From Schmidtea polychroa (taxonomy: Eukaryota): a stretch of DNA of 60,000 nt. How positions within the stretch are numbered: position 1 is the stretch's first letter; every line of letters starts with the position of its first letter. The stretch spans positions 4,590,001 to 4,650,000 of the forward strand of contig CM097885.1 in the NCBI GenBank assembly GCA_044892525.1, given 5' to 3'. The translations under genes and the position numbers were made by a program. Shown here piece by piece: positions 4,355 through 46,204 of the stretch. The notes beneath the pieces were generated by a model. It was given only the letters and a program-made list of their open reading frames with translations, was not told the DNA's origin and did no database searches.

Positions 4355-7049
4355 GACTAACCCAATGTCTCATAATTTTTTCCAAAATATTATTAGTGAT
4401 CCAGCGGGCTTACACTTTTTCTCATCGCAAAAGCTATCGTTCCCATTATCCGAATTTATTAATCGATAGCTTATTTTGAAGCTTAGTCTACGACCTTTCG
4501 ATTGAGCCATAGAAGGTATCATTATCATTATCATTCTATTGGACGATACCTCATCTTAAATCCCAATGCAAGACCTTTAAGATGAGATATAGATTCCTAT
4601 CATACGATGACTCATCTCATTTTTAGAACAAAGACAAAGACTAACCCAATGTCTCATAATTTTTTCCAAAATATTATTAGTGATCCAGCGGGCTTACACT
4701 TTTTCTCATCGCAAAAGCTATCGTTCCCATTATCCGAATTTATTAATCGATAGCTTATTTTGAAGCTTAGTCTACGACCTTTCGATTGAGCCATAGAAGG
4801 TATCATTATCATTAATATTGGCAAAGTTATTAACATTTTACCAAAAATCATTTTCAAGGTCATATTATTATTATTATTATTATTATTTTTCAAAATAATA
4901 TTAGTGATCCAGCGGGCACATGGTTTTCATTATCCGAATTTATTAATCGATAGCTTATTTTAAAGCCCTGTGCAAGATATATTTATTGATATATAAATAT
5001 TATTATTATCATTATTATTGGCAAAATTAATAACGTTTTACCAAAAGTCATTTTCAAGGTCATTTATTTTTTTTTCAAGGTCAAGGTCATTTATTTTTTC
5101 CAGGGTCTTTAAAATTTTCAAGGTCAAGGTCAAGGTCATTCCCAAGGTCACATGACTCACCGTGATGACTCATCAAGGTCATTTAATTTTTCAAGGCCAT
5201 TTATTTTCAAGGTCATTTTTTTTCAAGGTCATTTAATTTTTCAAGGTCAGAGTCATTTATTTTTTCAAGGGCATTTATTATTTTTTCAAGGTCAAGGTCA
5301 AGGTCATTTATTCTTTTCAAGGTCATTTATTTAATTCTTCAAGGTCAAGGTCAAGGTCATTAATTTTTTTCAAGGTTACGGTCATTCCCAAGGTCATATG
5401 ACTCACCGTGATAAACTCATCAAGGTCATTTAAATTTTCAAGGTCATTTATTTTTTTCAAGGTCATTAATTTTTTCAAGGTCAAGGTCGTTCCCACGGTC
5501 ATATGACTCACTGTGATGACTCATCAAGGTCATTTAATTTTCAAGGTAATTTATTTTTTCAAGGTCATTTAATTTTTCAAGTTCATTAACTTTTTTCAAG
5601 GTCAGGTAATTTTTCAAGGTCAAGGTTAAGGTCATTCTCAGGGTCATATGACTCACCGCGATGACTCATCAAGGTCATTTAATTTTTCAAGGTCATTAAT
5701 TTTTTTCAAGGTCATTAATTTTTTTCAAGGTCAAAGTCAATGTCATTTATTTTTATTTCAAGGTCATTTATTTTTAATGTCAAGGCCATTCCCAAGGTCA
5801 TATGACTCACCGTGATGACTCATCAAGGTAATTTAATTTTCAATGTCATTTATTTTTTCAAGGTCATTTATTTTTTTTTCAAGGTCAAGGTCAAGGTCAT
5901 TTATTCTTTTCAAGGTCATTTATTTAATTCTTCAAGGTCAAGGTCAAGGTCATTAATTTTTTTCAAGGTCATTTAGTTTTTCAAGGTCATTTTTTCAAGG
6001 TCATATTATTTTTGAAAAATATTATTATTATTACTATTATTATTATTATTATGATTATTATTATATACTCTGAGTTTATCCGACAAAATATTCTGTCCAA
6101 GGTCAAGGTCAAGGTCATTTATTTTTTTAATTTAATTTTATGTTTTAATTAAGTGATCCAGCGGGCTCACACTTTTTATCATCCCAAAAATTAATGTTCC
6201 CACCAACGGATTCTATTGGACGATACCTCATCTTAAATCCCAATGCAAGACCTTTAAGATGAGATATAGATTCCTATCATACGATGACTCATCTCATTTT
6301 TAGAACAAAGACAAAGACTAACCCAATGTCTCATAATTTTTTCCAAAATATTATTAGTGATCCAGCGGGCTTACACTTTTTGTCATCCCAAAAGCTATCG
6401 TTCCCATTATCTAAATTTATTAATCGATAGCTTATTTTGAAGCTTAGTCTACGACCTTTCGATTGAGCCATAGAAGGTATCATCATCATTAATATTGGCA
6501 AAGTTATTAACATTTTACCAAAAATCATTTTCAAGGTCATATTATTATTATTATTATTATTATTATTTTTCAAAATATTATTAGTGATCCAGCGGGCACA
6601 TGGTTTTCGTTTGCCCAAAGTTTTGTTCCCATTATCCGAATTTATTAATCGATAGCTTATTTTAAAGCCCTGTGCAAGATCTATCTATTGATATATAAAT
6701 ATTATTATTATCATTATTATTGGCAAAATTATTAACGTTTTACCAAAAATCATTTTCAAGGTCATTTATTTTTTCAAGGTCATTCATTTTTTTTTCAAGG
6801 TCATATTATTTTTTAAAAATATTATTATTATTACTATTATTATTATTATGATTATTATTATATACACTCTGAGTTTATCCGACAAAATATTCTGTCCCCC
6901 TATGGGTATTGCTCACAAAGGTACTGCTCACCAGAGTACTACTCACACTCAACAAGTCACATGGATACTGTTCACAAAGTTACTACTAAAAATAATCAAG
7001 ACAAAACTTTAACAAAGAAATTCTAAATATTATTCTTTAAATATACACT
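4355..7049 (+). repeat. Left inverted arm of element A, internally duplicated, with TCAAGGTCA arrays
   Basis: Block GACTAACCCAATGTCTCATAAT... occurs at ~4355, ~4639 and ~6316; reverse complement of 20233-21339. Confidence 0.85.
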
Positions 7050-7297
7050 CAACTCATATATGTAGTGGTGTGCTCACTCTAACATACATTTCAAATAAAA
7101 ATTTCTACCAAATTCTTTCAATAGTTAAAAATGATTTGTAAAAACTTTATCAATATTAATAAATATATTTATACAAGTGTTTAACATTTGTAAGAAATGT
7201 GAAAACTATAACGAGTTTTCAATAAAAATTTCAGATAATACTACAATGTAGAAGAAACGTTTTCAAAATAAAAAGAGATATTAACATTTATCACAGT

Positions 7298-10200
7298 TTA
7301 GTCTGACAATAAAATATCATCTATATCTATTTCATCATTAGGATCATCACCAGAAACAAAATCTGGACTTAATCCTCCGAATAGTGGCCCAACTTCTTCA
7401 AATATTTGATCATCATTTATATCATCTAGTGCTAAATAATGACCAAATGCGAGACTGGAATTTTTCCCCACCCAAAACCGCTTGTCGTCGTTGTTTGACA
7501 ACGCGATTTTATTGTTTTTAAATGTGTACAATTGATGGTTCCGCGTCCTTATCCTACTTTGTGGCACAGAAAATACTACGTTGTTATTGTAGCATTCTAA
7601 ATATGAATCGTGCCTAATTTCTGTACCTATTAACCTGACTCTTTTTGCTTTTAAATGATCTTTAGCCCCTAACAAACTATAGCACTTGGGTCTTAAGAAA
7701 ACCCATTCCTTATACCCTAGACCTTTACTTTCATCTTTAAATTTACCTATCACCGAATCAAGGTTTCTAGAGTATAAGGGATGTGCAGGGTCATAGTTGG
7801 AAGTGTCTAAAAGATTGTCACGAATCATTGCCGGCAAAAGAGTGTCAAGCTTACAGTTCCTAACCTCAAGAAAAAGAGTCAGCATCGCCGGCAACGATAT
7901 TTATCTCACATTTAAATTCATTTCTATATTTAGCCAATTCTATATACTGTAACTGGTACATCCTCAGTTTAGACAGGTCTAGCACCGTTTGGCCAATGTA
8001 ACTAGGCCTGTCTAAACATATAGAATCCTTATTGAGATGTGCAGCAATCAAGTCATCATCAATTTTGATAGATTTCTTGAAAGTCGGCTCTGAAGCATAT
8101 ACAATCATCTTTTCAGCTGAATTGCATAGCCTCAAATTCATCCATTTTTTAAGGTTTTCTACGGATTTCCCATACAGACTATTATTAAATAATTTGTATA
8201 GATCTCTGTGCAGCTCGCATGTAGAATTGGCTCTCAAATTAGTGTTTTTGTCTATGTACGATTTAAAAATGGGTGCATGCTCTAATTTGATTGCTCTATG
8301 TACATTTTTAATAATAGCCCCTAATTCTATATACAACTTGAGAAATCGCCAATGAAGAACATGGTTCTTCTTCGGCCAATGCGTGAGCATCAGCTTCTCA
8401 ACTTTAGAATTTGGCGGGCACATCTTTTCCGGAGCAAGCGGAAAATCATTCAGAAAGTCATGCAAACAATCAGGTATATCGATATCTACCTCCATAGTAT
8501 AACCATATGGAAGGTTATCGATATCAGCATTCATACATTCATTCAAGACAGAATCAAGATCATCATACACCCAAACAAAGTCAGCATAAGGCAGATTTTG
8601 GCTTAAGGCCCAACCATACAAGTTATTAATATCAATATACAAGAGTTCTGTGTCTTCAGAACTTGCAACATAATGTTTGTTAACAAATGTTAACCCACCC
8701 CGTATCCCTCCTTCATAGAAATTAAACATTTCCATGTCCTGCAAAAGTTCAATGGGTTCCGTTAATGTCATAAGCGCAGAGGCCCATGACATACCGGGAA
8801 TGCCATAGAAATTAAGAGGCTCAAGACCATGGCCTTTTCACGGAATTGTTGAAAATAGTCTGCGAGGAGAAACACGTCTAATTTAAGGTAAGTTAACATG
8901 TAATCTAACATGTTATTGCAGTTTTGCTGAGTCCAAATAACTTGGGCTAATGCATATTCATCATTAGACACAGAATCCCAGATAGGAGGTAGTTCAAGAG
9001 TCGATTCTAGAACCTCAAGAGATGTGGCAAAGTCATAAGGAAAGACACCTTTGGCTCGAACAATTGCGCCATCGAAAACCGAAGAAGTTAAAGGCAGATC
9101 GGAAAGAGTCTTAACCGCTTTTGCTAAAGATGAATTAACAAACTGCATGCTGTCAATAAAAAGAACAGACAATTTGTTAATATACACGATGAGGGAGATG
9201 AATTTCTCGGTAGTGGTCGGAATAATATTTAATTCCCAAGAAGGAAAATTCTTCAAACCATACTTCAAAATATGATAGAGATCATACCCCCTCAAATTAT
9301 GAAAAACCACAGGTAACCTTTCTGAATTCGTCGAGAAACATTACATTTCCTACAGGCAGCACCAAGATACTTACCTGAAAAGTGACAATGATCCCTAACT
9401 CTATTTCTAATAAATTTTTTACAAAGGTAGCAGGTTCTGGAATCACGAAAGGCCCGCTCTTCAGCGAAAGACAAGGTTTGCATGGGCTTTTTCCCATTAA
9501 TTTCGTAATATGGCAAGAAAATTGTCATAGCAATTTCCTCCACCTTACGCAAGAAAGACAACACACAATCATCCCCAACAAACTCATAATAAAATTTAGA
9601 GTTATTATAATTATTTATTAATAATAAACCTGCTGTTATTGGCAAATGCTTTTGATGGTGTATTATATCCCCCGGTAAAATTGATTCAAAGTCTGCATAT
9701 ATCACGAATGGCGGGGTTATGGTTTTCGCATAATTTTGAAAAATTAAATTTTTCTCTTTAGGTAGCGTGTATAGAGTTGTTCCTATCTGGTTTTTAATGC
9801 ATAAGGCGACATGAATATCAAATGCATTTTTATGTCTAAATCCGTTAAGACAATGGGGACACCAGTTTACTTGAAGTCTAACGCCGCATTCACTGCTAGA
9901 GTGACAATTCATTAATTTTTGTAAGTTAAAAACTGCGGTGTAATGAAAATTATCAACATCTTCCAATAAAAGTAAGTATAAGGGTTCACCACCTATAACC
10001 TTAGATCGGTGAATTATATCCAATTTGGGATGATGTGGAATATAATTATCGTCAACTATATTTTCAAAAGGCTTAGCTGGGGTTGTTCTATAAGTTAAAA
10101 AATTTATTGCTAAATTTAAATCCTTATTTTTCATCTCGAATTTAGGAATATCACATAGTTTCATTGGACAATCGAAAATGGGGTCAAAATTTAACTCGTC

Positions 10201-11240
10201 AAGATAATTTTCATAGGAACTAACTCTATTTCTATTTATATGTACGACATTACGTTTTAAAAGTGCTAAAATACTATTTATAAAGCACATATAATCAGTG
10301 TTTTTAACGTTTACTATTGCACTTTTAGATTTTAAAGCTGATGGGGTGGGGATATAACTATGTCCAGCTAGCCTATTCATATGTGTAAATTTTGTTAATA
10401 TAAAATCTATTTCTTTGATTTTAACAACCCGCCATCCACTACCCAAATATGTGAATTTTTCTATTTTATTATTTAATTTGTGAACCCCCTCACTTAGAAA
10501 ACTATCTGAAAAAGCCTCTGCCTATTCGAGAAGAAATTATCTTTAATTTCACCATCTTTTTCAAATTGAATCAATACGGAGAATTGTATTTTCACCGACC
10601 CCATTCTGATTATTTCATGATTTAACTTATTAACAATTTTATCGGTTATGGTTATTTGAATGATGTTATCCTTCTCTACATTAAATCTTAGATTCTTTCG
10701 AACCCCCTTAAAATCAATTTCGATTTCAGGTTCATCGTCAATATCGACTGAACCGCCTACTTGAATATTATTAACCACACCATTGACAGTTATTTGATCT
10801 AATTTATTAATTTTAGAGGGAGCATCAGACCCAATACTAACAGCAGGTCTTTTTAAATTATTATTTACATTAATAACATTATTAATTATAGGTTTTGTAA
10901 TATTATTTACAGGTTTTATATGTTTTGTATTAGTTTTAATTACATGTTTTGTAATATAATTTACAGGTTTTGTATTATTTACATTAGTTTTAATTACAGG
11001 TTTTGCGGTATTTCGCAGTTTGTTAAATATATCCTTTTTATTTAAAGAGAACTGATTTAAATGGGATTTATGTATACTGTAAAACTCTAAATATTTAATG
11101 CTATGGGAAGTCTCGCATATTGGGCATATATAGTACTTGATGCCATAAAATTTACGACCATAATATTTTTTCATCACTTTGTGACATAATTTTGAGTGAG
11201 CAGTTGAAGCCTGGCAGTAATGTGGATAAAATTTGCCTGT
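7298..11240 (-). pseudogene. Protein-primed family B DNA polymerase of element A, frameshifted into 5 pieces
   Basis: ORFs 10494-11177, 9292-10446, 8768-9310, 7866-8792, 7298-7894. Motifs: YADFES, RDHCHFSGKYLGAACRKCN (EndoVII-like), FHNLRGYD, YLKLDVFLL, YIDINNLYG, KLFNNSLYGK, GDADS. Confidence 0.93.
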
Positions 11241-11436
11241 TAATTATATTTATCAATTAATATTAGTCATGAAATTGTATTTATATAACATTTATATTTC
11301 TTTTACGCAATTATCATTTAGTTCTTATAAGGATTTTACAATTATTGATATGTTTCATTTAAATACATTATAAAAATGAAATAAATATTAATAATTGTAA
11401 AATATTAATAAAGTCTTGTAAACTATAAATGTGGGA

Positions 11437-11503
<67 letters not shown>

Positions 11504-11884
11504 GATGCAGCTGCATGCTCACTGCAGACTACATTTAATAAAGGGTAATTATTACATAATAAATAAATAGTTTGATGTAGCTGCATGCTCGATGCAGACT
11601 ACATTTAATAAAGGGTAATTATTACATAATAAATAAATAGTTTGATGTAGCTGCATGCTCGATGCAGACTACATTTAATAAAGGGTAATTATTACATAAT
11701 AAATAAATAGTTCGATGTAGCTGCATGCTCGATGCAGACTACATTTAATAAAGGGTAATTATTACATAATAAATAAAATAGTTTGATGCAGCTGTATGCT
11801 CACTGCAGACTACATTTAATAAAGGGTAATTATTACATAATAAATAAATAGTTTGATGCAGCTGCATGCTCACTGCAGACTACA
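11504..11884. repeat. 70-bp tandem repeat (6 units), each with a hairpin
   Basis: TTTGATGTAGCTGCATGCTCGATGCAGACTACATTTAATAAAGGG... at 11571, 11641, 11711 etc. Confidence 0.9.
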
Positions 11885-11889
11885 AGATA

Positions 11890-11944
<55 letters not shown>

Positions 11945-12265
11945 TTAACTAATGTAGTTGCTCATTGCAAACTACAAAGAGTATTTTAAAACTATAGTTT
12001 ATTAATCACTTTTTTTAAACATTTGCATAATTTCAAAATAATAATTTCATAATTTTCTCTATTTTCGTTATAATAATTTCAATATAATATTTTCATAATT
12101 TTCTTCATTTTCGTTATAATAGTTTCATCATAGTATTTTCTTCATTTTCATAATTTTCATCATAGTTATTTCTTTACAATTTCCATCATAGTATTTTCTT
12201 CATAATTTCGTCATAATTACAATAATAATAATTCCAAAAAAACATAATAATTTTACGAATAATAT

Positions 12266-12880
12266 TTATGCAACTGTTTAAAAAAGTGATTAAGAAAATT
12301 TTAAAAATTTTGTTAAAGAAATATAAAATTAAATAAAGGCTTACATTGTGATTCCTGGTCGGAATCAGATTCCTCATCAGCTACCTCCTCAATAGAAGTG
12401 AGGGCATTATTTTCATCAATAGAAATGTGAGCATTATTCTCCTCAATAGAAGTGAGGGCATTTTCCATATTGTTTTCCTCATCATTATTAATTGGGGTAT
12501 CTGCATCCATGTCATCATTAAACACTAAAATGATTTTTAAAAAATAATATACTAAAATAAAATAAATTTACTTTGTTTATTGAAAACATTGTTTTGCCCA
12601 ACAAATAAGGCATCATTATCCGGGGCATCATTTTGTCCAATAAACACGACATCATCGTCGTCGCTAATTATAATAGGTTCTAAATAAAATAATAATTTCA
12701 TAAAAATTAAAATATTTAAATTTACCGAAAATCCTATCAACATTCAAAATTGAATCATCTTCGGTCACTTGGTACAAGTCGAAAGGATCTAAATAAAAAA
12801 TAAAATATAATAAATAAATAAATAATAAAATTACCGGTAGTCAATAGACTTCTTAAAATATTATTGTTTCGGTTAGTCAT
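12266..12880 (-). CDS. Five-exon acidic ~134-aa protein of element A with SIM-like motifs
   Basis: Exons 12880-12835, 12788-12726, 12679-12572, 12524-12345, 12273-12266; GT-AG introns of 46, 46, 47 and 71 nt, all phase 1, frame preserved. Confidence 0.7.
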
Positions 12881-13140
12881 TTTAAAGTTTTTAATTTTGA
12901 AAAATTGTGACAAATTTTAGATTTGTCAATGTTTATATAGATCGGGAATATTTCCATGTCTCAACCAATCAGAATTTAGACACATTCCCATATAAACTGA
13001 ATATTTTTCCTCTATCAGCCAATCAAATGGTATCTACTTCATGGGACTGACTATCTTTGTTAGTCATGACTTTGTGCATGCACAATGATTGTGTTGTCTT
13101 TATTTGGATAATAATATTTTTCAAAATGAATTTAATTAAA

Positions 13141-13167
13141 AATAATAATATTAATAATATTAATAAT

Positions 13168-13240
<73 letters not shown>

Positions 13241-13269
13241 TTGATAATAATAATAATAATAATAATATT

Positions 13270-13324
<55 letters not shown>

Positions 13325-13344
13325 TTAATAATAATAATAATAAT

Positions 13345-13375
<31 letters not shown>

Positions 13376-13390
13376 ATTAAAATAATAATA
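13141..13390. repeat. (AAT)n microsatellite
   Basis: Direct reading. Confidence 0.95.
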
Positions 13391-13416
13391 ACAACAAAGG
13401 ATACAAAATACATTTA

Positions 13417-13803
13417 TTAAACATCAAATTTTTTATACAACAACCAAGCTAAACAATGTTGACCGCATGTTTGTGTCAATGGATTTTGAAACATAGTTTT
13501 ATTATATACAATAGGTTTCCCCATTGTTTGTAGTTTTGATACCAACAAAGCAGGGTAATAGAAACCCATTGGATCGAACACGAATATATTACTAGGTTTC
13601 ATATATATAGCAATCCAATGTTCTCCACCAAGATGAGACGATTGACTATTGACGATTATGGCTTGATTATTGCTCAAATATGGGATTTTTTCGAGAGGAA
13701 AAACTCCTACAAATTCATTTCCCAACATCTGTTTTCCAATTCTATTGACCTGAACAGAACTACTTTAATAAATCCTGAGTATCAAAAAAAAAACTTACTC
13801 CAT
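13417..13803 (-). CDS. Adenain-like cysteine protease of element A (5-nt first exon, 39-nt intron)
   Basis: GEHWIA, FDPMG, QNPLTQTCGQHC catalytic motifs; ATGGA|GTAAG...TAG|TTCT gives MDSVQVNRIGKQMLG. Confidence 0.88.
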
Positions 13804-13830
13804 GACAACTTTTTATATTTCTGTATACAT

Positions 13831-15053
13831 TTATACTAGCACGGTTCTATTTGCAGTAATTTGAACTTCATTTTCAAATACTCCATATATTATAACATTT
13901 ACTGGTTCAGTAATGGCCTTTGCAAACTTTATATCCAGTCGTAAATTTCCGTTTTGTGGTAATTGACTCTGATTTAAATCAAAATCGGGGGCTAAAACAA
14001 ATGTAAAAAATGGGTATTTGCTTTTAAAATCTTCAAGAGTTATTCCGCAATTCAAATTTTTATCTAAATAACCTAGATTTCTAACAATACTCTGCATATA
14101 TGTCGCACAGTAATTATCATTCTCGAAATCTTGAGTATATGTTTCTCTATAATCAGTATTTTTCGACAAAGTCAATGAAGTAACACCAAAGTTTTTGAAA
14201 ATTGAGCTGGAAGCAATATAAGACCCATTATATTGCGTTTCACTTTGAAATGTTACCAGAATAAAATTAGGCATTCTTCTGTCACCAAATATTTGTTCTT
14301 TATAGAATGATGAAGCACCTTTAGCAATAGCAAATTGTACAATTTCCTTTGTTTTTAAAGGATAAATTGCATGTTTTGAATAAAGACCCAATTGATGACC
14401 AGCTAATACTGACGGGTCTACTCGAACTCTTCTCACCAATAATTTTGCATCAGCTAATTGACATATTGGTGCACCAGTTACACTAGTAAGAGATAATGCA
14501 GAATCGGGCCTTTTCAATCTAATATGTACATTAACTCCCGGTAGTAAATATTTCGGTTGATCCATAAAATCAAGTTGTAATGATGAGCACATAGTGAATA
14601 CTTTTGAACCTTTAACCCACTTTTTTCTTTCATCATCTGTTGCTGCATAACCCATAGATGTAAGACAGGTATTTTTAGTATCGGAATTGTAATTTAAAAT
14701 AGTTTCTATCAAAGCCTTGTGAATGAATGTATTATTTCCGCCCTCAATCTTGATATTATTAAATCCCAACACTGCATCTTTAAACAGAGTATGAAACATG
14801 AAATTGTTTGGTAATACATCTGCATTGGCATCCAAAACTTTTCTATCTTTATCTACAACTTTGATCTGAACAGTCAATAAAGTATCGTTCAAATCTAAAT
14901 ATTCAGTTTGCGAACCATTAATATAAAACTCGATATCATTTCTACTATCAGTAATTAAATTCATAGGAAAACTTCCTCAAAGGCACCAAATTCTATAACA
15001 GCCTGAGGCGATGGTCTATCAAATATACATAATTCAGATTTACCACAAATCAT
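13831..15053 (-). CDS. Major capsid protein (double jelly roll) of element A, 1 frameshift near N-terminus
   Basis: MICGKSELCIFDRPSPQ start at 15053, frameshift ~14965, then YLDLNDTLL, QPKYLLPGV, GNLRLDIKFA; homologous to 47674-48897. Confidence 0.88.
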
Positions 15054-15412
15054 TTTGCAAATATAGTTCCATATCCTTTCATTCGTTTGTTTATACGCGA
15101 TATTCCATGTCCTTTACGTTTTGGAGCTTGGGCTGGAGGCGTATCTTTTTGAAACATACCAGCAACTCCAAGTAGAACCTTCCCTAACTCCGCTAAAGCA
15201 TTTGTTTTTAGAGATGGTAATATTTTCTGCTCATTCATAATCACATCTTTAGCAGTTTTCATGCCAAAACTACCAATACGTTTAGGAATAGGTAGGGCAA
15301 ATCTACCAATTGTTTTTAACCAACCTGATTCGTACTGTTTACCAATAAAATATGGTAATTCACCGCCAGATTGGCTATCACTATACATACTAATAATATC
15401 GGAATTAGCCAT
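15050..15412 (-). CDS. Small Polinton virion/core protein (QxGG motif, amphipathic N-terminus, basic C-terminus)
   Basis: SQSGG..KQYESGWLKTIGRFALP; syntenic homolog at 48894-49292. Confidence 0.65.
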   Translation of the reverse strand: MANSDIISMYSDSQSGGELPYFIGKQYESGWLKTIGRFALPIPKRIGSFGMKTAKDVIMNEQKILPSLKTNALAELGKVLLGVAGMFQKDTPPAQAPKRKGHGISRINKRMKGYGTIFAK

Positions 15413-16421
15413 CTACTTTACGAAAATGTAATGTCAAATGAGTTTTTGAGTCTTTTGGGAAGTTTATAAGTTTTCCACTATCGTCACGAATATTTATTTC
15501 TATATTGTTTATACATGAGCTTGAAATTGGTAAATACATAGGATTATCTATATTTATATTGACAACTTCATCATGTTCGTATTTTCCAATCCATACAGAT
15601 TTCAATAGAGGAACACTGGAATCACCAACTATTATAAGCTCAATAATATTAGTATATATGAACATTTGTTGATGATGTTCAAGTATTCTTGGTTTACGTA
15701 TACCAGCCGATTTTTCCCGATATTGCTGCTTCTCTAATCCAAGTGTATTTGTCAAATTTTTATCAAATGTAACTTCGCAAATGTCATCATTCAAACTGAA
15801 GGTAAATAACAATTCTTTCACAATGTCCAAACTTTTAAATATGTGTGAACAATTGAACTTTAAATATTTAAGTAATACATCAAGTTTATCAATATATAAT
15901 TCCTCAGCGAAGGTGAATGATTTTTCAACTTCATTATTATACGACACTGATATTTTGATTTCTTCTTTCATTACACTGTTTGCTTCATATAGATCAAAGC
16001 GTAATAAGTATTCTGTTTCCATAACTTCATTTTTCAACTTATTGCAACCCATTCGTCTGGCATCTTCAATATATTCGAATGTTATTGTAAATGGTTTAAA
16101 ATCACAACTGATATTTAATCCATCCTTGTAAAACATAGAGCAATGCGGATCTAATATTTGATTCGGAATATGATATGTTTTATCATAATTACTGATAATA
16201 AAGATACCACTACATGTTTTCATAACATTCCTTTTGAAATCAATCTTACATTGACTATAAAATGGGAATGTATTGTACACGAATGTAAAGTCTTGCAGTG
16301 CAACTTCCCAGTCACCATTTAAAGAAATCGAATTCTGGAGATTGACCATGAATTTACTGGCTTGATTATCTGGATGAATAAGCGGGCAACTATTGCTTGG
16401 CAAAATAGTATAAAAATTCAC
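15405..16421 (-). CDS. Minor capsid protein (penton) of element A
   Basis: FYTILPSNS, WEVAL, FIYTNIIE..IVGD...PLL, IEINIRDDSG..LTLHFRK; ORF track start at 16472 overlaps the integrase end. Confidence 0.85.
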   Translation of the reverse strand: MNFYTILPSNSCPLIHPDNQASKFMVNLQNSISLNGDWEVALQDFTFVYNTFPFYSQCKIDFKRNVMKTCSGIFIISNYDKTYHIPNQILDPHCSMFYKDGLNISCDFKPFTITFEYIEDARRMGCNKLKNEVMETEYLLRFDLYEANSVMKEEIKISVSYNNEVEKSFTFAEELYIDKLDVLLKYLKFNCSHIFKSLDIVKELLFTFSLNDDICEVTFDKNLTNTLGLEKQQYREKSAGIRKPRILEHHQQMFIYTNIIELIIVGDSSVPLLKSVWIGKYEHDEVVNINIDNPMYLPISSSCINNIEINIRDDSGKLINFPKDSKTHLTLHFRKVDG

Positions 16422-17467
16422 TTTACTAGGTCCTTTTCTGATATCCATGATGGGTTTTGATAACCATCCCATTTGACATAGTATTGTTTATCCTTGCCGA
16501 CCTTTTTAGTTTTCAATATCTTCTGAATTCTAAATACTTTTGGAGGAGGAAAACTTGTAATTCTTGTTCATAAAATTTTCCTTGTACAATATTGTTATCA
16601 TTGTCTTTGATGACATACATTACAGGATTCTGTTTAGTATTTATTTTTGAAATTACAAAGACTTCATCACTCCAATTCGTATCGGAATTTTTAATAAATG
16701 GTGATGCACTAATTTTACTAATTCTAACATGGTCACCTACTTTATATTTCGGTTTTGTAATATTTAGAATAGATTGTTTTTGACGTGATATCAATCGGCC
16801 TTAATCCATTCAGTCCTTGATGTGATGAGTGATTATAACTGGTTATTATTTTTGGTAAAACCAATACCCATTTTTTATTACCTTGATGCACAAATAATTT
16901 CTTTAATCTATCTCTCAAAGTTCGGTTAAATCTTTCAACATGAGCAGCTTTGTATTGAGAATGTACTGAGTAATGGTTTATTTTCAATTTATATAGGATT
17001 TGCTTGACTTTACTGTTGTAGAATTCTTAACCTAAAATAATAATAATAATAATAATAATAAAAATAATAATATTAATACCTAAATCAGTTTGCAAGTTTT
17101 TAGGATGTCCATCTTTAAATAAGTGATGAACAGCTTTGGACATTTCATCTGCAGATTTTGCCTTGACGGGTATTGCTCGGGCAAACCGACTGAATACATC
17201 AATACATGTTAAAATATATTTATACCCATTGTTAATTTTCGAATAGGGTATCATCTCCATCAAATCCATTTGCCATAAATCATTTATTCCATATGTTTTA
17301 TATGCTCTTGTTGGGAATCGTTTCTGCATTGGTTTGTTCAAACTTTACGCAAGCTGGTCTGATAACCACTTCTGGGTTTCCTTTTTCGAATTTGGAACTC
17401 TTTTCCTTAATTTTGCCACTCCACCAAAACCGGCTTCGTCTTCCGGGTTCGTCCAAATCTTCTCCAT
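16418..17467 (-). pseudogene. Retroviral-like integrase with C-terminal chromodomain, 48-nt intron, nonsense/frameshift lesions
   Basis: LWQMDL, CIDVFSRFA, LQTDLG|intron 17032-17079|G*EFYN, VERFNRTL, KYKVGDHVRI, GKFYEQELQ, YYVKWDGYQNPSWI. Confidence 0.9.
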
Positions 17468-17528
17468 TACAACAAGAAGATTTAATATTAAATTTAATGT
17501 CTGGTAATGAAGGATTAGCACCCATTGT

Positions 17529-18023
17529 TTATGATCGACGTCCTATTATTCCACCTAATAATGATATTGCTAAAGGTATCAATGCACCGATAAATCCCCC
17601 TTGTTGTTTATATATAATTTTTCTCATTTGTTGACGATTTTTATTATTTACTAATGATAGCAAAGGTTTCCTATGTTTACTCAATAATTGCTTTTTAGAT
17701 TTACTGATTTTAATCTTGCTTTTGACTACTTTAAGTATAATATCGAGTAAATCATCGACAACATAATTTGGAAATGATTGCAAAATACTGTTTCTTTTCA
17801 TACTTGGTGCCTTTAACAATGTATTGAAAAACGGGAAACTCCGATGATTTTTAACAACTTTTACTTTCTTAGTGGTTTTACTTTTAGGTTTAGGTTTAGG
17901 ATTTTTCGAAATAAGATTCATTGCAGGAAAATTTTCTGTAATAAGTTCTTTAGATAGAGTATAACTAGTTGTTGGTGGAACTTTTGGTTGTTTTTTACCC
18001 GATATCCTTGTTTTTGAAAACAT
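17529..18023 (-). CDS. Basic protein ending in QQGG + hydrophobic tail (Polinton core/membrane-lytic type)
   Basis: Lys-rich 164 aa ending KQQGGFIGALIPLAISLLGGIIGRRS. Confidence 0.6.
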   Translation of the reverse strand: MFSKTRISGKKQPKVPPTTSYTLSKELITENFPAMNLISKNPKPKPKSKTTKKVKVVKNHRSFPFFNTLLKAPSMKRNSILQSFPNYVVDDLLDIILKVVKSKIKISKSKKQLLSKHRKPLLSLVNNKNRQQMRKIIYKQQGGFIGALIPLAISLLGGIIGRRS

Positions 18024-18036
18024 GATTTATATGTTT

Positions 18037-18674
18037 TCAACTTTGTTTTGAACTTTGTTTATATACCAAGGCACCTTTTGGATTGAAAATATCTGTTTTT
18101 ACGCGTATATCATCAGGACATTGTTGTGTGAAATCGAGAAATATATACCCATGCGGTATTTTCGTAGCATCTTGAAATGCATTGATAAGAAAATTACGGT
18201 TATTAGGGTATGCTTGTCGTCCAAGAAAATCAATGACAGTTGCATCTCTAGGATTCTTGAAAATAACTAAATATTGTACATTTAAATTACGTGTTTGATG
18301 TGCACCACCTTGATGAAATAGATTTGTGTTATGAAAATAACTGTTACACCGACATGTCTGCTGATTTTTGTGAATAAATTATTAAAATCCTTTTCTTTAT
18401 TGGCTTCTTGATACAAATCATCGATAATGATGACATCATCTTTCTTCAAACGACTTGACCAGTTTTTATCAAAACCATTTACTATTTTCATGTTTTTCAA
18501 CTGACAGAAACTTGATTGCGTCAATCCATGTTCTTCGTCGGCGCCCCTATGCCAATAAATATTGTTGAATTTTGTTTTAAACAAATTTGATTTTAGTAAT
18601 TTACAAACAAATAAAGTTTTCCCGCTACCACTTGGACCAACGATTTGGTATACTGCATCATTTCGTAATTCCAT
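18037..18674 (-). pseudogene. A32/FtsK-like packaging ATPase of element A, frameshifted
   Basis: GPSGSGKT, IIIDDL, ISRH, ITQ; after the frameshift, LNVQYLVIFKNPRD...PHGYIFLDF. Confidence 0.88.
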
Positions 18675-18778
18675 TTTTTAAATTTAAACAATATAATTAT
18701 TGTTTATATTGTTAATTTAAATGAACTCTGTTTTTAAATAGCTATATATATCGGAGTTTTTATAATTATTTCATTAAA

Positions 18779-19232
18779 ATGCTTTCAAATATAAATTACA
18801 GGGCAAAACTGATGTATCAAAAATGGTATTTCTAATAGGGAAACCACAACAACTTATCAATAGAAGTAATAAATATCCGATAATATATTTCAAAACTGGT
18901 AAATGTAGAATTATGGGGTGTAAGGAAATAATCAAAGCTAGTGAATACAATGTTTATGATTTAGAAATACAATCGATAACCGTAACTTCTGATATAGGTT
19001 TTTAAATAAATTAGCTAAATTAATACCATGCTTTTATGAACCAGAATTATTTCCAGCTTTGAGATATATAAAATATAACCCTATGTGTGTAAATATATTC
19101 GCTAATGGTAAGGTAGTAATTCTTGGAATAAAAAATATTGATTACAAATGTATAGTTGATAATATCATATCTGAAATTAAATCAATAATTGAAGGAAAAG
19201 AATTTTTAGATTTTTTATTATCACTTAATTAA
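18779..19232 (+). pseudogene. TATA-binding-protein-like gene (two TBP repeats), frameshifted
   Basis: IIYFKTGKCRIMGCK ... LEIQSITVTSDIGF / FYEPELFPALRYIKYNPMCVNIFANGKVVILGIK, matching TBP IFSSGKMVCTGAK and YEPELFPGL..IFVSGKVVLTGAK. Confidence 0.78.
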
Positions 19233-19352
19233 TTATTTATCATTGCAATATCAATTCAATTAAAACAAAAACATGCTGCAATCTGATTGGATGATAAACA
19301 ATAGTCATAGGTATAAAAACCCTGCACCATTTCATTTTAATCATAATTCACA

Positions 19353-19772
19353 ATGACCAAGAAAATTTCAAGCACAGAAAAACCAAAAGTAGTTCCAGAA
19401 CTTGTAAAACCTGTTCAAATGTTCCACAACTATAAAATGTATTTTTTAAAAGAAGAAATCAATATGAAATTGGTGTCACCGATCAAGCTAATTCCTACCC
19501 AATTTCAATTCTTAACCGGCACGCTTTCGATGTTAGATATTAAAACCATAGATGATGTTTTCAAAAGGTTGAATACGAATCTATCATGCAATCAAAATGC
19601 ATTTTTCAACAACCGATATGCAAAATTTTATGATTCCTTTGATGAAATCAGTTTCAAAGAAAACGAAAATTGGTATATAACAATTGCAATCCAAGGATAT
19701 AAAGTTGATAATAATGATGTGTATTCTCCAATTTGGAAAATTATGTCTGCTAGACTTTCACAGTTATTTTAA
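19353..19772 (+). CDS. Conserved 139-aa Polinton protein (possible OB-fold SSB)
   Basis: Homolog at 45501-45932 shares KP.Q...Y.MY.LK and I.IQG.K......PIWKI. Confidence 0.65.
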   Translation: MTKKISSTEKPKVVPELVKPVQMFHNYKMYFLKEEINMKLVSPIKLIPTQFQFLTGTLSMLDIKTIDDVFKRLNTNLSCNQNAFFNNRYAKFYDSFDEISFKENENWYITIAIQGYKVDNNDVYSPIWKIMSARLSQLF

Positions 19773-19875
19773 TAAATGTTGTTGTATTTAATAAATGTAT
19801 TTAGTTATATTTGTTTTCGCTTATATTCTATATTTTCTATAAACAAATATATACTATAGTTTTAAAATACTAATA

Positions 19876-20234
19876 ATGACTACAGAAAAAGGTTAATATG
19901 ATTAGTTAATTATCAAATTATTTAATATTTAGAATTTATAATAAACTTTTTATTGGAAAAATTAGCAGAAATATCTGGTGTAAAAATGGATGATATATTA
20001 TCTGTTGCAAACGCATTAAATATAGTCTGGGTAGCAGAGAGTGAAGATTCGGGATTTGATGAAACAGATGAAGAAAACACTCAAGATGATGAGGAAAGCA
20101 TTCAAGAAATTGATGAACCTATGGAGGAATTTACGGATACTGAACCGTGCGTATATAGGGATTGTATAGATCATGTTGTTGAAAATGTTATGAACTGTGG
20201 AGATGATGAATGTGAATGTGTTAATAAATTTTAG
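19876..20234 (+). CDS. Spliced acidic, Cys-containing ~105-aa protein
   Basis: ATG 19876, 41-nt GT-AG intron 19892-19932, in frame with ORF 19953-20234; stop at the TIR edge. Confidence 0.55.
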
Positions 20235-21339
20235 TGTATATTTAAAGAATAATATTTAGAATTTCTTTGTTAAAGTTTTGTCTTGAATATTTTTAGTAGT
20301 AACTTTGTGAACAGTATCCATGTGACTTGTTGAGTGTGAGTAGTACTCTGGTGAGCAGTACCTTTGTGAGCAATACCCATAGGGGGACAGAATATTTTGT
20401 CGGATAAACTCAGAGTATATATAATAATAATCATAATAATAATAATAGTAATAATAATAATATTTTTAAAAAATAATATGACCTTGAAAAAAAATGAATG
20501 ACCTTGAAAAAAAATGACCTTAAAAATTTAAATGACCTTGAAAAAAATTAATGACCTTGAAAAAATAAATGACCTTGAAAAATTAAATGACATTGAAAAA
20601 AAATTAAATGACCTTGAAAAATTAAATGACCTTGATGAGTCATCACGGTGAGTCACATGACCTTGGGAATGACCTTAGGAATGACCTTGACCTTGAAAAA
20701 AATAAATGACCTTGGCCTTGACCTTGAAGAATTAAATAAATGACCTTGAAAAAACAAATGACCTTGACCTTGAAAAAATAATAAATGACCTTGAAAAATT
20801 AAATGACCTTGAAAAAATAAATGACCTTGAAAATTAAATGGCCTTGAAAAAATAAATGACCTTGAAAAATTAAATGACCTTGATGAGTCATCACGGTGAG
20901 TCATGTGGCCTTGGGAATGACCTTGACCTTGAAAAAATTTAATGACCTTGAAAAAAATAAATGACCTTGACCTTGACATTGAAAAAAAATAAATGACCTT
21001 GAAAATGATTTTTGGTAAAACGTTAACAATTTTGCCAATAATAATAATAATAATAATATCTATATATCAATAGATAGATCTTGCACAGGGCTTTAAAATA
21101 AGCTATCGATTAATAAATTCGGATAATGGGAACAAAACCTTTGGGCAAACGAAAACCATGTGCCCGCTGGATCACTAATATTATTTTGAAAAATAATAAT
21201 AATAATAATAATAATATGACCTTGAAAATGATTTTTGGTAAAATGTTAATAACTTTGCCAATATTAATGATGATGATACCTTCTATGGCTCAATCAAAAG
21301 GTCGTAGACTAAGCTTCAAAATAAGCTATCGATTAATAA
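20233..21339 (-). repeat. Right inverted arm of element A (TGACCTTGA arrays), truncated
   Basis: AGTGTATATTTAAAGAAT... mirrors 7049 backwards; ORF 21126-21446 mirrors ORF 6331-6618. Confidence 0.85.
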
Positions 21340-28474: not shown

Positions 28475-29503
28475 AGTAGTGTGTATATATACCCAACCAA
28501 CACAGCCCTCCCAACAGAAACATACCTCCATTACGCTTATACCATTAGAAAAACAACCTAAAACTTATACTTTTATAGTATTTTAACCCTATATTTTTGA
28601 AAACAACCACCCTTAATCTTTAAAGCCTCAAACTCAAAAGCTTCAAACTAAAAAGAGAATAGAAAAGAAAATGGCATTATGAAAAAGTTAGAGGGCTATT
28701 TGGGATAGGGCTATATACACACTACTTTTGATCGCAATCAAACTCCGGAGCATTATGAAAAAGTTAGAGGGCTATTTGGGTTAGGGCTATATACACACTA
28801 CTTTTGATCGCAATCAAACTCCGGAGTTAATCATTATCAGATTATTGATTTTAAATTATATAAATTAAAAAATAAATGAAAAATAGTAAAACTGCTCTGA
28901 GGGGACAGTGGTATTTTTTTTTTCACTGTCAACTCAACAGTTTTTTTGATCCGGATCATTTCAACCTCTTTCGTTTATCAAATCTCTTCTAATATACAAG
29001 CTGGCCAGACTCATACATCAGAATCAATCCGATAATAGCAGCACGCCTTATTATTCGCTTCTCGCTCACGAAGTCGATTTCATCGGCGTTTTAAGCGTAC
29101 AAAAGTACAAATGAATTCGAAAGCGAATCCGAAAGAGGTCCGAAAACAACTGAGAAATAAATGTGCACATTAAAGAATCGATCCGGGGGTGTTCGAAAGA
29201 CTGGTGGCGATAATTACCGGTTCGCCACCATCACCCGTTTCAATAATTTTTTTTTCATATTTATGTTTAAAAAATAAAATAAAATAAAATAAATAAAATA
29301 AATAAAATAAATAAAATAAAATAAAATATACAACTACTTTATAAATCTAAGATACCCACACTATTATTTTCAAATTTTTAATATTATTTTATGTTGAAAA
29401 AAAACTAACCACAGTTAGGATTTGAACCGCTATCCATTTGAACCACTGTGCCAGTCTAGCCCACTGCGCTATCTAGGTTTGGATTTTTGTTATTTTTTAG
29501 ACT
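28475..29503 (+). repeat. Left TIR of element C (contains a 76-bp tandem duplication)
   Basis: Reverse complement of 42675-43617. Confidence 0.93.
29397..29480 (-). ncRNA. Putative Pol III small RNA unit (in left TIR)
   Basis: A-box TAGCGCAGTGG (29471-29461), B-box GGTTCAAATCC (29428-29418), T8 terminator. Confidence 0.6.
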
Positions 29504-29725
29504 ATAAATAATCGATTCAAGTTCTTTAACTCTTTCCTGTAATTGTTTCATTTTCTTCAATCTTATATCAGCAACATCTACAGCCTTCATATAAAAATGT
29601 CGATACTTTTCATTATCTACTATCAACTCTTTGATGTATTCTAATGGTTCTTCTTCTCTTCTTTTCATTCTCTTATGTTTAACTTCATTCAATTCATTTC
29701 TCATTCTTTCTTTTAACTCATCCAT
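29456..29725 (-). CDS. 89-aa charged coiled-coil protein
   Basis: ORF with AAAATG start context, stop inside the TIR. Confidence 0.5.
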   Translation of the reverse strand: MDELKERMRNELNEVKHKRMKRREEEPLEYIKELIVDNEKYRHFYMKAVDVADIRLKKMKQLQERVKELESIIYSLKNNKNPNLDSAVG

Positions 29726-29881
29726 TTTTATAAATATTTTTTTATTGGATATATTAATTTTTGGTAGTTAAAACGTTTTTGATCTTAAATTTCCAAGAGT
29801 TGCCGTTGACCAATATCCTTAAAAATTTGTACAAGTACTAAATCGAGTATGCTGATCAATATTTCGTTAAAAAAATATTTG

Positions 29882-29962
29882 AAAAAAAATGACCGAAATG
29901 GGATTTGAACCCATTGGTATTGGCAATGCAGTCGAGTGCTATTACCACTAAGCTATTAGAGC
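29882..29962 (-). ncRNA. tRNA-like (Cys-GCA-like 5' half) putative Pol III unit
   Basis: TAGCTTAGTGG A-box, CGACTGCA, perfect T-arm ATGGG-TTCAAAT-CCCAT, T8; acceptor stem only 5/7 paired. Confidence 0.6.
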
Positions 29963-30124
29963 TATACTCAATATAAAATAAGTTGTTAATGTGTGACTAT
30001 TTATTGATGAAATTAATAATTAATTAATCATTTTCTCGACAACTACCACTCAGATCCATCTGAAAATTTAAATATATACTAAAATCAGTACGCTGAATCA
30101 TATTCCGTTGAAAAAAAAATATCG

Positions 30125-30206
30125 AAAAAAATTGACCAAAATCGAAAATTGAACCCGGTACTCCCGGTGATAAAATTGAAGCCTATTCCCACTCCGCTAT
30201 AATGGC
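30125..30206 (-). ncRNA. Diverged paralog of the 29882-29962 Pol III-like unit
   Basis: A-box TAGCGGAGTGG, degenerate B-box GGTTCAATTTT 33 nt later, T7; downstream flank duplicated. Confidence 0.45.
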
Positions 30207-30262
30207 TTACAAAATATATTTAATTAATCCTATTGTGTGTGTGTAAATTTTAATATATAAAA

Positions 30263-31555
30263 ATGAATAATATAAATCTTAAAATTCAAGAAAAAAATAA
30301 ATTAAATCTTGATTATAATAAAGAATTTACTCGTGAAATCAAGAAAAACGATGTACTTAAAATATCCCCAACTTCAGGATCTATTGCAAACTTAAATCGT
30401 AGGGGTGATATAGTTTTTCAATCTCTTCAAACATCAAACCCAATAGATATTTGTAATGCCAAATTATATTATAAAATTGAATTAGAAATTGAAGCAAACA
30501 AAGATATAACCCTAGAAAATAATTTCTTTCCAAATTTATTCTCCAACATGAGATTAAAACTAGGATCATCAGAAATTGAAACTGTTTTACATCCAGGAGT
30601 ATATTCTACAATGTTAAATTTTATTTTGACTGGTTGTGATTATAAAAATGAATATGGTGAATTAACAGGCTGGATTCCTGATGTTAATAAAGGGGATTTA
30701 GATAAAGATGGTTTAGATATAAATTATGGTTACTATAAAAGAGCTGAACTTTATAAATCTAAAAAATTTGAAGGTTATTTTGAATTAAAACACTTGTTTG
30801 GATTCCTTCAAAACTATAATCGTATACTTCATAATGTTTTTATAGAATTAGTTTGTAATAGAGTAGAAGGTGATAAAAGATTGTTCTATGGAGATAAGGA
30901 TACAACAGCTAAATTAAAAATATCAACACTTGAATTGCATATACCTGAATGGACATTAAATCCACATTCTGAAATCAAACTCCTTGAAAGATTAAATTCC
31001 AACAAGTCTATAAATGTAAATTATTTAAATAGAATCTGTAGTGAATTTAGTATGACAGAGGGTTCAACATATTCTATAAAGGTAGCAAATTTAGCATACC
31101 GACCAAGATATATCTTGATTGGATTCAAAGAAGTAGATTCATCTTTCCAAAAAAATAACAACTTGTTTATTCAAAAGATTGGAGATGATAATTTAAAAAC
31201 AATCCAAATTCAATTAAATAGTTCTTATTATCCAATAAATAGAATGGAATTTAATATTGAAAATAATGAAAACATATTCCCATATCTAAATTATATTGAA
31301 ACATGTTATGATTTCAAAGTTGAACCACAATTAAGTTTAGAAGATTTCAAAAATTTATATTCTATATTTTGTATAAATGTATCAGATCAAGATGATAGAT
31401 TAGCCATAAATAATGTTGATGTTACACTTCATGTAACAAAGGATTCTAATTTCAAAGCTAAAGTATATACATTAATATTAGAAGAAAAGAAAATAGAAAT
31501 GAAATTATATGGTGGAAAGATTTCAATTATTGAAAATATTAGGGGAGATTCTTAA
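30263..31555 (+). CDS. Major capsid protein of element C
   Basis: 430 aa; NNFFPNLFS..LKLG..EIE..HPG, LKHLFGF, RPRYILIGF, QLNSSYYP, IFCINVS; Polinton MCP pattern and context. Confidence 0.85.
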   Translation: MNNINLKIQEKNKLNLDYNKEFTREIKKNDVLKISPTSGSIANLNRRGDIVFQSLQTSNPIDICNAKLYYKIELEIEANKDITLENNFFPNLFSNMRLKLGSSEIETVLHPGVYSTMLNFILTGCDYKNEYGELTGWIPDVNKGDLDKDGLDINYGYYKRAELYKSKKFEGYFELKHLFGFLQNYNRILHNVFIELVCNRVEGDKRLFYGDKDTTAKLKISTLELHIPEWTLNPHSEIKLLERLNSNKSINVNYLNRICSEFSMTEGSTYSIKVANLAYRPRYILIGFKEVDSSFQKNNNLFIQKIGDDNLKTIQIQLNSSYYPINRMEFNIENNENIFPYLNYIETCYDFKVEPQLSLEDFKNLYSIFCINVSDQDDRLAINNVDVTLHVTKDSNFKAKVYTLILEEKKIEMKLYGGKISIIENIRGDS

Positions 31556-31572
31556 TATTTTAACATTTTAAA

Positions 31573-33012
31573 ATGTCTCTAAATAAACCGTATTGGAGAT
31601 GTGAAACTTGTAATTGTCAAGTTACAAAACATCACAAAGCAAATCATTTAAAAACTAAAAAACACATACTTGGATCAAATACTAATTCTTGGTTAGAACC
31701 CAATCCTTCAAGTAGATTTGCTTTTGAGAATCAACTCTTTGAAGGAGGTGATCTACAATCTTCAAAAACAACATCTTCAATATTAAAACCTTTTACTACA
31801 GAAAAATATCCAGGTGAAAGACATTTATTTAAACACAACTATACCGGACCAGGAACAAGATTAGATATTAGATTAGATGAAAAAATTAATCCTAAACAAG
31901 GAGAAGAACCAATAAATAGAATTGATCAAGCAGCTTTAAAACATGATATTGCTTACAATTCAGAAGATCTTAGAGATAGACATGTTGCAGATGTTAATTT
32001 AATACATGATTTAAATAGTATCCAAAATCCATCAACCCAAGAAAAGATTCAAAGAGCTCTAGTTAAATTAGCAATGAAAGGTAAGATTTTCATAGGTGCT
32101 AGTTTACCAAGGATGGCAAAAGATGTTGCAAATAAAAAGATTATTGAACAAGCAGATGCTGAAAGATCCCTCGAGAATATATCCAAGACTAGTTTATTAA
32201 CCCCAACAGAATCACAAATAAAATATGCCAACGAATTACACCATGAATTTAGAAAAAATAAAAAATATTTAAAAGTTCAAGTACATGAAAAAGATCAAAC
32301 ATGGTCTGCAGATTTAGTCTTTATGCCAACCAAATCATCAGTTCCTGAAAAATATAAAATAATTTTAACTGTAATAGATTTATATACAAGATTTGCCTTT
32401 GCAAGGTGTTTAGAAAATAAAACAGGATATTCCATTACAGAAGCATTTGAAAATATATTTGAAGAACATCAAAGAATTTCAAAATATTTATGGAGTGATA
32501 AAGGAACAGAATTTTATAACAAAGTTTTTACAAAGTTTTTAAATGAAAATGATATTAAATTATATTCAACAGAAAACGAAGGAAAAGCAGTTGTGGTTGA
32601 AAGATTAAATAGAACATTAAAAAGTAAAATGTGGAAATATTTTACGGCTATTGGAAAACAAAAATGGAACAATGAATTGTTACAAAAGATTGTAAATGAA
32701 TATAATAATGATGTACATAGTTCTATAAAATCAACACCTTTAAATGCTTCCATGAATCCTGAAACCATTAAAGTGGTAAATATTGAAAATGATGTTATTG
32801 AAAAACCAAAGTTTAAAATTAGTGACCGAGTAAGAATATTTAAATATAAAAATAAATTTGAAAAAGGATTCACTGCAAAATGGACAAATGAAATTTTTAT
32901 TATAAATAAAATACATTATACAACTCCAATAACATATAGCATCATTGATTTAAATAATGAAAAAATATTAGGTAGATTTTATAATAATGAGTTACAGAAA
33001 ACAGATTTTTAA
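31573..33012 (+). CDS. C2H2 zinc finger + parvovirus-type PLA2 + integrase fusion
   Basis: CETC..HLKTKKH; NYTGPGT..NRIDQAALKHDIAY..RHVAD; WSADL, IDLYTRFA, SDKGTEF, VERLNRTLK, GRFYNNELQ. Confidence 0.9.
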   Translation: MSLNKPYWRCETCNCQVTKHHKANHLKTKKHILGSNTNSWLEPNPSSRFAFENQLFEGGDLQSSKTTSSILKPFTTEKYPGERHLFKHNYTGPGTRLDIRLDEKINPKQGEEPINRIDQAALKHDIAYNSEDLRDRHVADVNLIHDLNSIQNPSTQEKIQRALVKLAMKGKIFIGASLPRMAKDVANKKIIEQADAERSLENISKTSLLTPTESQIKYANELHHEFRKNKKYLKVQVHEKDQTWSADLVFMPTKSSVPEKYKIILTVIDLYTRFAFARCLENKTGYSITEAFENIFEEHQRISKYLWSDKGTEFYNKVFTKFLNENDIKLYSTENEGKAVVVERLNRTLKSKMWKYFTAIGKQKWNNELLQKIVNEYNNDVHSSIKSTPLNASMNPETIKVVNIENDVIEKPKFKISDRVRIFKYKNKFEKGFTAKWTNEIFIINKIHYTTPITYSIIDLNNEKILGRFYNNELQKTDF

Positions 33013-33023
33013 GTCGACAAGCC

Positions 33024-34463: not shown

Positions 34464-34485
34464 TACCATTTTTGATACCATTAAA

Positions 34486-35352: not shown

Positions 35353-35374
35353 ATACAAAGTTATAAAATATAAA

Positions 35375-36597: not shown

Positions 36598-36621
36598 AGA
36601 TTCATTTTAAATTATTAATAA

Positions 36622-37599: not shown

Positions 37600-37607
37600 T
37601 TATTAAA

Positions 37608-38200: not shown

Positions 38201-38285
38201 TTTATAAAATGGGTGTATTTTAAAAAAAGTAGATCAGGTTGCTATAGTTGCTTAAATTAATTGTCGACATTTTATTATTAAAAAA

Positions 38286-42600: not shown

Positions 42601-42674
42601 TTTTAGAAAAAAATTTTTTATTGGATATCCTGTTTTGATTTTTTATGTTTTTATATTTATTTTCATAATGTCAC

Positions 42675-46187: not shown

Positions 46188-46204
46188 TATTATTAGTAGT
46201 ATTA

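Follow-up and report, generated by a model that had tools for sequence, protein, structure and literature searches.

TATA-binding proteins of cells, DNA viruses, and Polintons

The two-lobed saddle that TATA-binding protein (TBP) adopts is found in cellular TBP and TRF proteins and in archaeal TBP (PF00352). In cellular TBP, the convex surfaces of the N-lobe helices dock TFIIA, TAF1, Brf1, and Mot1. TBPs are also found in nucleocytoviruses, and those that hold one encode their own RNA polymerase. The gene described here, carried by a Polinton of Schmidtea polychroa, shares the TBP fold with these viral proteins (ASFV B263R-like and Heterosigma virus TBP, with Foldseek E-values down to 1.5e-7), but identity among the top matches is 8-22%, and no RNA polymerase was recognized among the 43 ORFs scanned in the window, a term that refers here to the whole stretch of 60,000 nucleotides that was analyzed.

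The principle proposed below is that of the vTBPs of beta- and gammaherpesviruses (KSHV ORF24, EBV BcRF1, and CMV UL87, with a TATT late box), in which a viral TBP fold reads a variant late TATA box and uses the host Pol II. The parts of PMC12529657 drawn upon here describe ORF24 as a multidomain protein of 752 aa with a polar DNA interface, which makes direct contact with Pol II, depends on five partners, and is devoid of the glutamates that contact TFIIB. Polar residues at the positions of V122, V161, and L205 are common to ORF24 (as listed in the same source) and the Polinton protein. In contrast, the latter is a bare core of 145-170 aa that keeps the TFIIB glutamates, is associated with a different box, and is accompanied by no recognized partner genes; the large protein with a Pol II-binding N-domain and a DNA-binding C-domain that is typical of the herpesviruses is replaced by one of 154 aa. 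Another point of reference is TBPm3, an altered-specificity mutant of yeast TBP with the changes I194F, V203T, and L205V (PMC1636458, in the part cited).

Adintoviruses, Mavericks, and MELD viruses share with the element studied here the genes for pPolB, integrase, ATPase, and adenain, as well as inverted repeats (Starrett et al. 2021, PMC8502044, as far as cited here). The legend of Fig. 5 in that 2021 paper lists a TBP label for some related virus, while the word "promoter" is absent from the main text, where neither a TBP family nor a box is described. Searches of the literature outside subscription journals, in which these elements were paired with TBP, TATA, or promoter terms, listed no paper on a Polinton TBP family or its box. 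The gene and box described below bear on two questions, namely the way in which Polintons, lacking an RNA polymerase, bring their capsid genes to expression, and the existence of a viral cycle in these elements.

A short TBP gene in Polinton A

Polinton A holds pPolB, an integrase, an A32 ATPase, adenain, and terminal inverted repeats, a set characteristic of Polintons/Mavericks. Related repeats around it extend to at least 4456 and 21339. Its features are the following:

6788..20494, no strand: Polinton A, between inner inverted-repeat arms (6788-7052 and 20230-20494), with pPolB, protease, integrase, and ATPase
18743..18750, plus strand: TATATATA, a canonical TATA-like box ahead of the TBP gene
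18771-18775, plus strand: initiator-like TCATT, 28 nt after the first base of TATATATA
18779..19232, plus strand: short TBP-fold gene, broken near 18805 and near 19000, open in sister copies (154 aa)
19353..19772, plus strand: 139-aa OB-fold protein, which has a canonical TATAAAAA of its own at 19312 and a TCATA at 19341
18701..18708, minus strand: TATAAACA box of the ATPase gene, 34 nt ahead of the start
18037..18674, minus strand: A32-like packaging ATPase, split in the window copy, head-to-head with the TBP gene
18056..18063, minus strand: TATAAACA box inside the 3' end of the ATPase gene, before a basic core-like gene (start 18023)
17605..17612, minus strand: TATAAACA box before a small Met-Gly ORF (start 17528)
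17298-17528, minus strand: small ORF starting with Met-Gly and containing Cys-Cys, between the core gene and the integrase, with its own box
17526..17533, minus strand: CATAAACA box upstream of the integrase
16485..16492, minus strand: GATAAACA box before the putative penton gene
15506..15513, minus strand: TATAAACA box inside the 3' end of the putative penton gene, before a 120-aa gene
15088..15095, minus strand: TATAAACA box ahead of the gene for the putative major capsid protein

The initial annotation had read a TBP-like gene with both repeats across two frameshifts in this copy, head-to-head with the ATPase gene, and this reading is borne out by a Pfam TBP match and by fold comparison. 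All the peptides that it quoted are found on the plus strand, where the ATG at 18779 and the stop at 19230-19232 delimit a stretch read in three successive frames, with the two frame breaks at the positions given above, and the longest ATG-started TBP-like ORF has indeed only 60 aa. The ATPase gene starts at 18674 on the opposite strand. The 3' piece of the window copy scores 33 bits with Pfam TBP (E 5.4e-8), and the 154-aa protein of an open sister copy, L014, scores 56.4 bits, both above the gathering cut-off of 22.9 bits; the 5' piece has no Pfam match at E 0.05.

The genes for PolB, integrase, ATPase, and the putative major capsid protein are likewise split in this element. The breaks represent decay of the window copy and are not a feature of the family. 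Sequencing error is unlikely to explain all of them, because the copy is 95-97% identical to its sisters and is broken in several genes.

As for the double jelly-roll capsid and the penton, which are likewise typical of Polintons, the candidates of element A have no Pfam match and are so labeled for their size, their position, and their conservation from locus to locus. The small Met-Gly ORF (52-84 aa) is conserved at the position between core and integrase genes in many loci, and might possibly encode a myristoylated virion protein. The 139-aa neighbor, which has no match in Pfam or Atlas, resembles T7 gp2.5, Enc34 SSB, and ASFV CP312R (middling Z-scores of 6.4-7.2, Foldseek E 1.6e-5), and its gene adjoins that of the TBP in 21 of 80 metagenome loci. 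It was considered as a transcription partner and set aside, as its top folds are single-strand binding proteins. Several relatives of this gene show a splice-acceptor-like sequence just 5' of the ORF.

A conserved family distinct from host TBP

A DNA search of the genome, in which the best 40 of 2755 candidates were scored, retrieved sister copies 95-97% identical to the window copy. The intact copies for which the initial annotation had called were found: an uninterrupted frame of at least 154 aa is present in 17 of the 20 fetched loci, the window copy being one of the three exceptions. With L014 as the query, all 150 matches scored (the best 150 of 4137 candidates) are identical, full length, stop-free, and 154 aa long.

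A Pfam search of the genome scored at least 150 TBP matches. Its top ten rows are the canonical host TBP and divergent two-repeat paralogues, of which the host genome holds at least five loci beside the canonical gene (L021-L030), one long uninterrupted frame being present in two of them. All six lower-ranking places that were fetched adjoin Polinton ATPases and represent other subfamilies. Matches between host loci and the element TBP are short, with identities of 28-53%. Separately, the host genome contains 13 TFIIB-family matches, with open frames of ~304 aa clustered at C1:23.8-24.2 Mb and C3:38.2-39.1 Mb, and two copies of a Brf1-like gene (L130 and L131).

Of 118 candidates, 97 were recognized as homologues, mostly of 144-165 aa, and a profile search finds many more members; two loci (L031 and L111) encode full-length or ordinary TBP types and were left outside the family. 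Polinton hallmark genes lie nearby in 39 of the 80 metagenome loci, and in 27 of the 35 contigs of at least 3 kb. A capsid candidate of the element-A type occurs in 11 of the metagenome TBP loci, while that of element B, another Polinton of the window, occurs in none. Contigs from four runs guessed to be RNA span the element (X1 including the TBP gene), although they carry no strand, start, or level and were left out of the evidence.

The phylogeny that had been proposed was built from 30 of 98 representatives, picked at random, together with 14 locus proteins and eight cellular-type rows, 52 rows in all. The cellular-type rows split off from the Polinton family at 100/100; no named nucleocytovirus TBP is among the rows, and the tree places no donor. 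The Polinton proteins are 22-32% identical to cellular and archaeal TBPs. The initial annotation had reckoned with a recent retrocopy of host TBP absent from sister elements, and the gene is neither. These comparisons indicate that it belongs to a distinct family, and that it is a conserved member of a wide Polinton clade rather than peculiar to Polinton A.

The dN/dS ratio of the TBP gene is about 0.2. Of the nine pairs compared, six fall within 0.12-0.33, two very close ones give 0.44 and 0.05, and the last is saturated. TBP and ATPase distances correlate over 10 dereplicated loci (rho 0.81, reached in 2 of 3000 permutations), with a dereplication filter that missed the long-form clade. Loci L014 and L112 depart from this pattern, with ATPases 7% apart and TBPs 45% apart, and were noted together with L115 and L116; an exchange of the early module between subfamilies sharing the same box is the likely origin of this difference. 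A distant subclade (L077-L100, L104, and L110) holds longer TBPs with fuller N-lobe segments and mostly a CATAAAC form of the box, as well as PLA2-like and KilA-N-like genes.

Fold and DNA-binding face

The AlphaFold2 model of the L014 protein (pLDDT 96) has a clear TBP fold. Its residues 1-141 align with archaeal TBP 2z8u (Z 12.6, rmsd 2.4), the next non-TBP fold reaching Z 6.3, and Foldseek gives a TM of ~0.7 to TBP over both lobes, so that both repeats of the initial annotation are present, the N-lobe in shortened form. The C-lobe is complete. In the N-lobe the strands are kept, H1 is missing, and H2 is a helix of four residues, the helices being otherwise reduced to loops; the H2 segment comprises 18 residues in the short subfamily versus 33 in cellular TBP, with longer forms in the sister subclade.

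Residues were counted over 98 word-index-free representatives, with the yeast numbering of Table 1 of PMC12529657. Three of the four intercalating phenylalanines are kept (F116 in 93, F190 in 97, and F207 in 97 of the 98), while no conserved Phe stands at or beside the position of F99 in these representatives, where the exact register varies between aligners. P191 is kept, and N69 is kept in 79. By sequence, the acidic C-terminal stirrup for TFIIB is also retained, with E186 in 87 and E188 in 96. Contrary to these positions, most other DNA contacts of cellular and archaeal TBPs are replaced: V122 by Arg in 93, T124 by Met in 96, L205 by Asn in 97, N159 by Ser or Thr in 97, V161 by Thr or Ser in 95, I194 by Arg in 61, and V203 by Cys or His in 84. 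The protein thus departs from canonical TBP in its phenylalanines, in the symmetric Asn69/Asn159, Thr124/Thr215, and Val/Leu contacts, and in the lack of a full N-lobe H1/H2, and it probably works like a minimal late factor of the herpesvirus type.

I194, V203, and L205, all changed in the Polinton family, are the positions mutated in TBPm3. The changes of TBPm3 are engineered and hydrophobic and relax base 2, whereas those of the Polinton proteins are natural, polar, and extended to both lobes. PMC1636458, in the part cited, assigns the 3' half of the TATA box to the N-lobe; in the Polinton proteins this is the most remodeled lobe, and the unusual C of the box described below falls in that half. 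Taken at face value, the residue pattern is that of a selected new specificity. The TBP of L136, a contig discussed below, holds His and Trp instead of the near-invariant Arg44 and Met46 and yet is accompanied by the same box, so these two residues would not be required for reading the C.

The same residues bear on the other function that the initial annotation had suggested, namely a decoy or dominant-negative TBP that damps host transcription by sequestering host TFIIB or TBP cofactors or by blocking host promoters. Such a role would suit the TFIIB stirrup, which is conserved better than any other surface (E188 in 96 of the 98), and the loss of one intercalating Phe is shared with TRF2, described in the cited part of PMC10005294 as a protein that does not bind TATA. 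However, the DNA-facing positions are fixed to new polar residues instead of drifting, the N-lobe helices that a cofactor decoy would need are reduced in the model, and the genome tolerates no fewer than 150 intact copies. A decoy would also leave the box unexplained. We regard it as unlikely, and less likely than a late factor.

A TATA-like box before packaging and virion genes

An unbiased word count was made in 77 dereplicated regions upstream of late-block genes (ATPase, core, integrase, penton, 120-aa, capsid, and protease genes). The top word is ATAAAC, present on the sense strand in 68 of the regions and on the antisense strand in two, counts that, like the P-values, overstate independence because the loci are related. 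The sense-strand consensus is (T/C)ATAAAC(A), and the base 5' of ATAAAC (n = 54) is T in 38, C in 13, G in three, and A in none. The box precedes 13/15 ATPase, 3/3 core, 14/16 integrase, 16/18 penton, 9/9 120-aa, 10/10 capsid, and 3/6 protease genes, where about one per gene class is expected. It is also found before three related SSB genes, while half of the protease genes are devoid of it.

The TBP genes are preceded by the box in 7 of 57 cases (3.7 expected), only one of them in the T/C form, and by a canonical TATA in 21 of 57 (7.4 expected); of 24 early-type promoters, 11 show TCA between +28 and +30. In Polinton A, TATATATA and the TCATT that follows would accordingly be read as a host-type, early promoter of the TBP gene. 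By these counts (68/77 versus 7/57 TBP genes), the variant box is confined to late genes, "late" being a designation inferred from gene type.

The distance from box to ATG is 31-48 nt in 29 of 55 cases, longer in 20, and under 31 in six; in most of these six the homologous start seems to come after the first ATG. After the box no clear initiator is seen, only a weak YR peak at +30 (32/80). Where boxes lie inside coding sequence, Ile-Asn is encoded as ATA-AAC at 13 of 16 box sites (one of the 16 mis-captured) versus 33 of 144 elsewhere; embedded boxes fix synonymous codons.

Two further contigs agree with this distribution. L136, which was found by its capsid gene alone, carries a TBP and shows TATAAAC before 8/8 block genes and before neither TBP nor PolB, and the only four ATAAAC sites of L137 lie on the sense strand before four block genes. 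In element B, which has no TBP, the box occurs at 0/11 starts; it is a single element of a different Polinton group. This is the only TBP-less control, and TBP and box may both be mere clade markers, since no TBP-less close relative was found: none was present in viral contigs (queried with ATPase, capsid, and element-B capsid) or in a phage collection, and genome contigs gave two loci, one TBP-positive and the other too short to tell.

Since ATAAACA fits the forkhead consensus, RTAAAYA, the box could be read by a host factor (a forkhead protein, host TBP, or one of the divergent paralogues, for which at least five loci are available), the element TBP having another job such as boosting or bending at the termini. 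The forkhead version was rejected, as the other forkhead form, GTAAAC, is present in 1/77 regions and the box is strand-specific (68 versus 2). With regard to a host TBP, the title of PDB entry 1qn3 records a plant TBP crystallized on a C(-25) TATA variant, but in the downstream half a C is disfavored by both TBPm3 and TFIIIB (PMC1636458, in the part cited). Moreover, the same box recurs in metagenome elements with ATPases only ~40% identical, presumably from different hosts. A host reader is accordingly improbable, though somewhat less so than a decoy.

The idea that the boxes are transcript-end signals of the upstream gene has in its favor that many of them are located within the 3' end of that gene, and small ORFs without an assigned role might encode another reader; in either case the TBP would be a hitch-hiker. 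Against a transcript end, AATAAAC is found in only 2/77 regions, so that, with the strand bias, a poly(A) hexamer was rejected, and the box precedes ATPase genes with no same-strand gene upstream (in the window and in L112-L114). Against these readings also stand a spacing whose lower edge, near 31 nt, is TATA-like, and a TBP dN/dS well below 1. We give this possibility very little weight.

Proposed mechanism of late gene activation

The presence of an own TBP and a matching non-standard TATA box suggests that these elements switch on their late genes themselves. In our judgment the gene probably encodes an altered-specificity TBP, made early, which directs host Pol II to the late genes of the element. 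In a first step, host TBP and Pol II would transcribe the element TBP from its canonical TATA box and initiator, the neighboring SSB-like gene being expressed early together with it by the host machinery. In a second step, every packaging, integrase, and virion-block gene would have the element TBP bound at (T/C)ATAAAC(A), ~30 nt ahead of its start site. Finally, its conserved acidic stirrup would recruit host TFIIB and Pol II, with initiation predicted to be TBP-directed, TFIIB-dependent, and located ~30 nt 3' of each box.

The late factor suggested by the initial annotation thus receives strong indirect support from the promoter-like box on the sense strand and from the rewired DNA-binding face, while the qualification "element-specific" has to be dropped in view of the conservation of the gene across a wide Polinton clade. 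The broader proposal, to which we lean with rather less assurance, is that in a broad clade of animal Polintons the full early-to-late switch resides in one natural orthogonal TBP of 150 aa, with YATAAACA as its site and with host TFIIB and Pol II as its sole requirements.

If true, this would be the smallest known viral late-transcription system, a convergent and much simpler parallel to that of the herpesviruses, and a conserved sign of a timed virion program in these "transposons". The family would also provide a natural set of altered-specificity TBPs for the study of minor-groove reading. A dedicated factor with a defined box of 7-8 nt can be tested with one small protein and short DNA probes (TATAAACA, CATAAACA, and TATAAAAG), and the box offers a means of recognizing late genes where elements lack annotation.

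Other elements in the window

Element B (28475-43617) sits within element C (24855-51975), inside the gene for the polymerase of the latter. It belongs to a different Polinton group, with a PLA2-integrase, a DJR capsid, and no TBP match. AAATG is found at 9 of its 11 starts, several of them preceded by CATTTT or ATTTT, a context that possibly represents its own promoter type. The 43617-51975 part of element C shows two penton-like genes and is devoid of ATPase, integrase, and TBP. Element C is a deletion derivative, as full copies of its family (L118-L125) carry these three genes, the TBPs of L120 and L125 being 57-58% identical. The contigs L136 and L137 are Polinton contigs within two bacterial metagenome-assembled genomes, and are probably mis-binned DNA of eukaryotic viruses. 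The window also contains pol fragments of an LTR retrotransposon (56253-59907, minus strand), with protease, RT/RNase H, and integrase.
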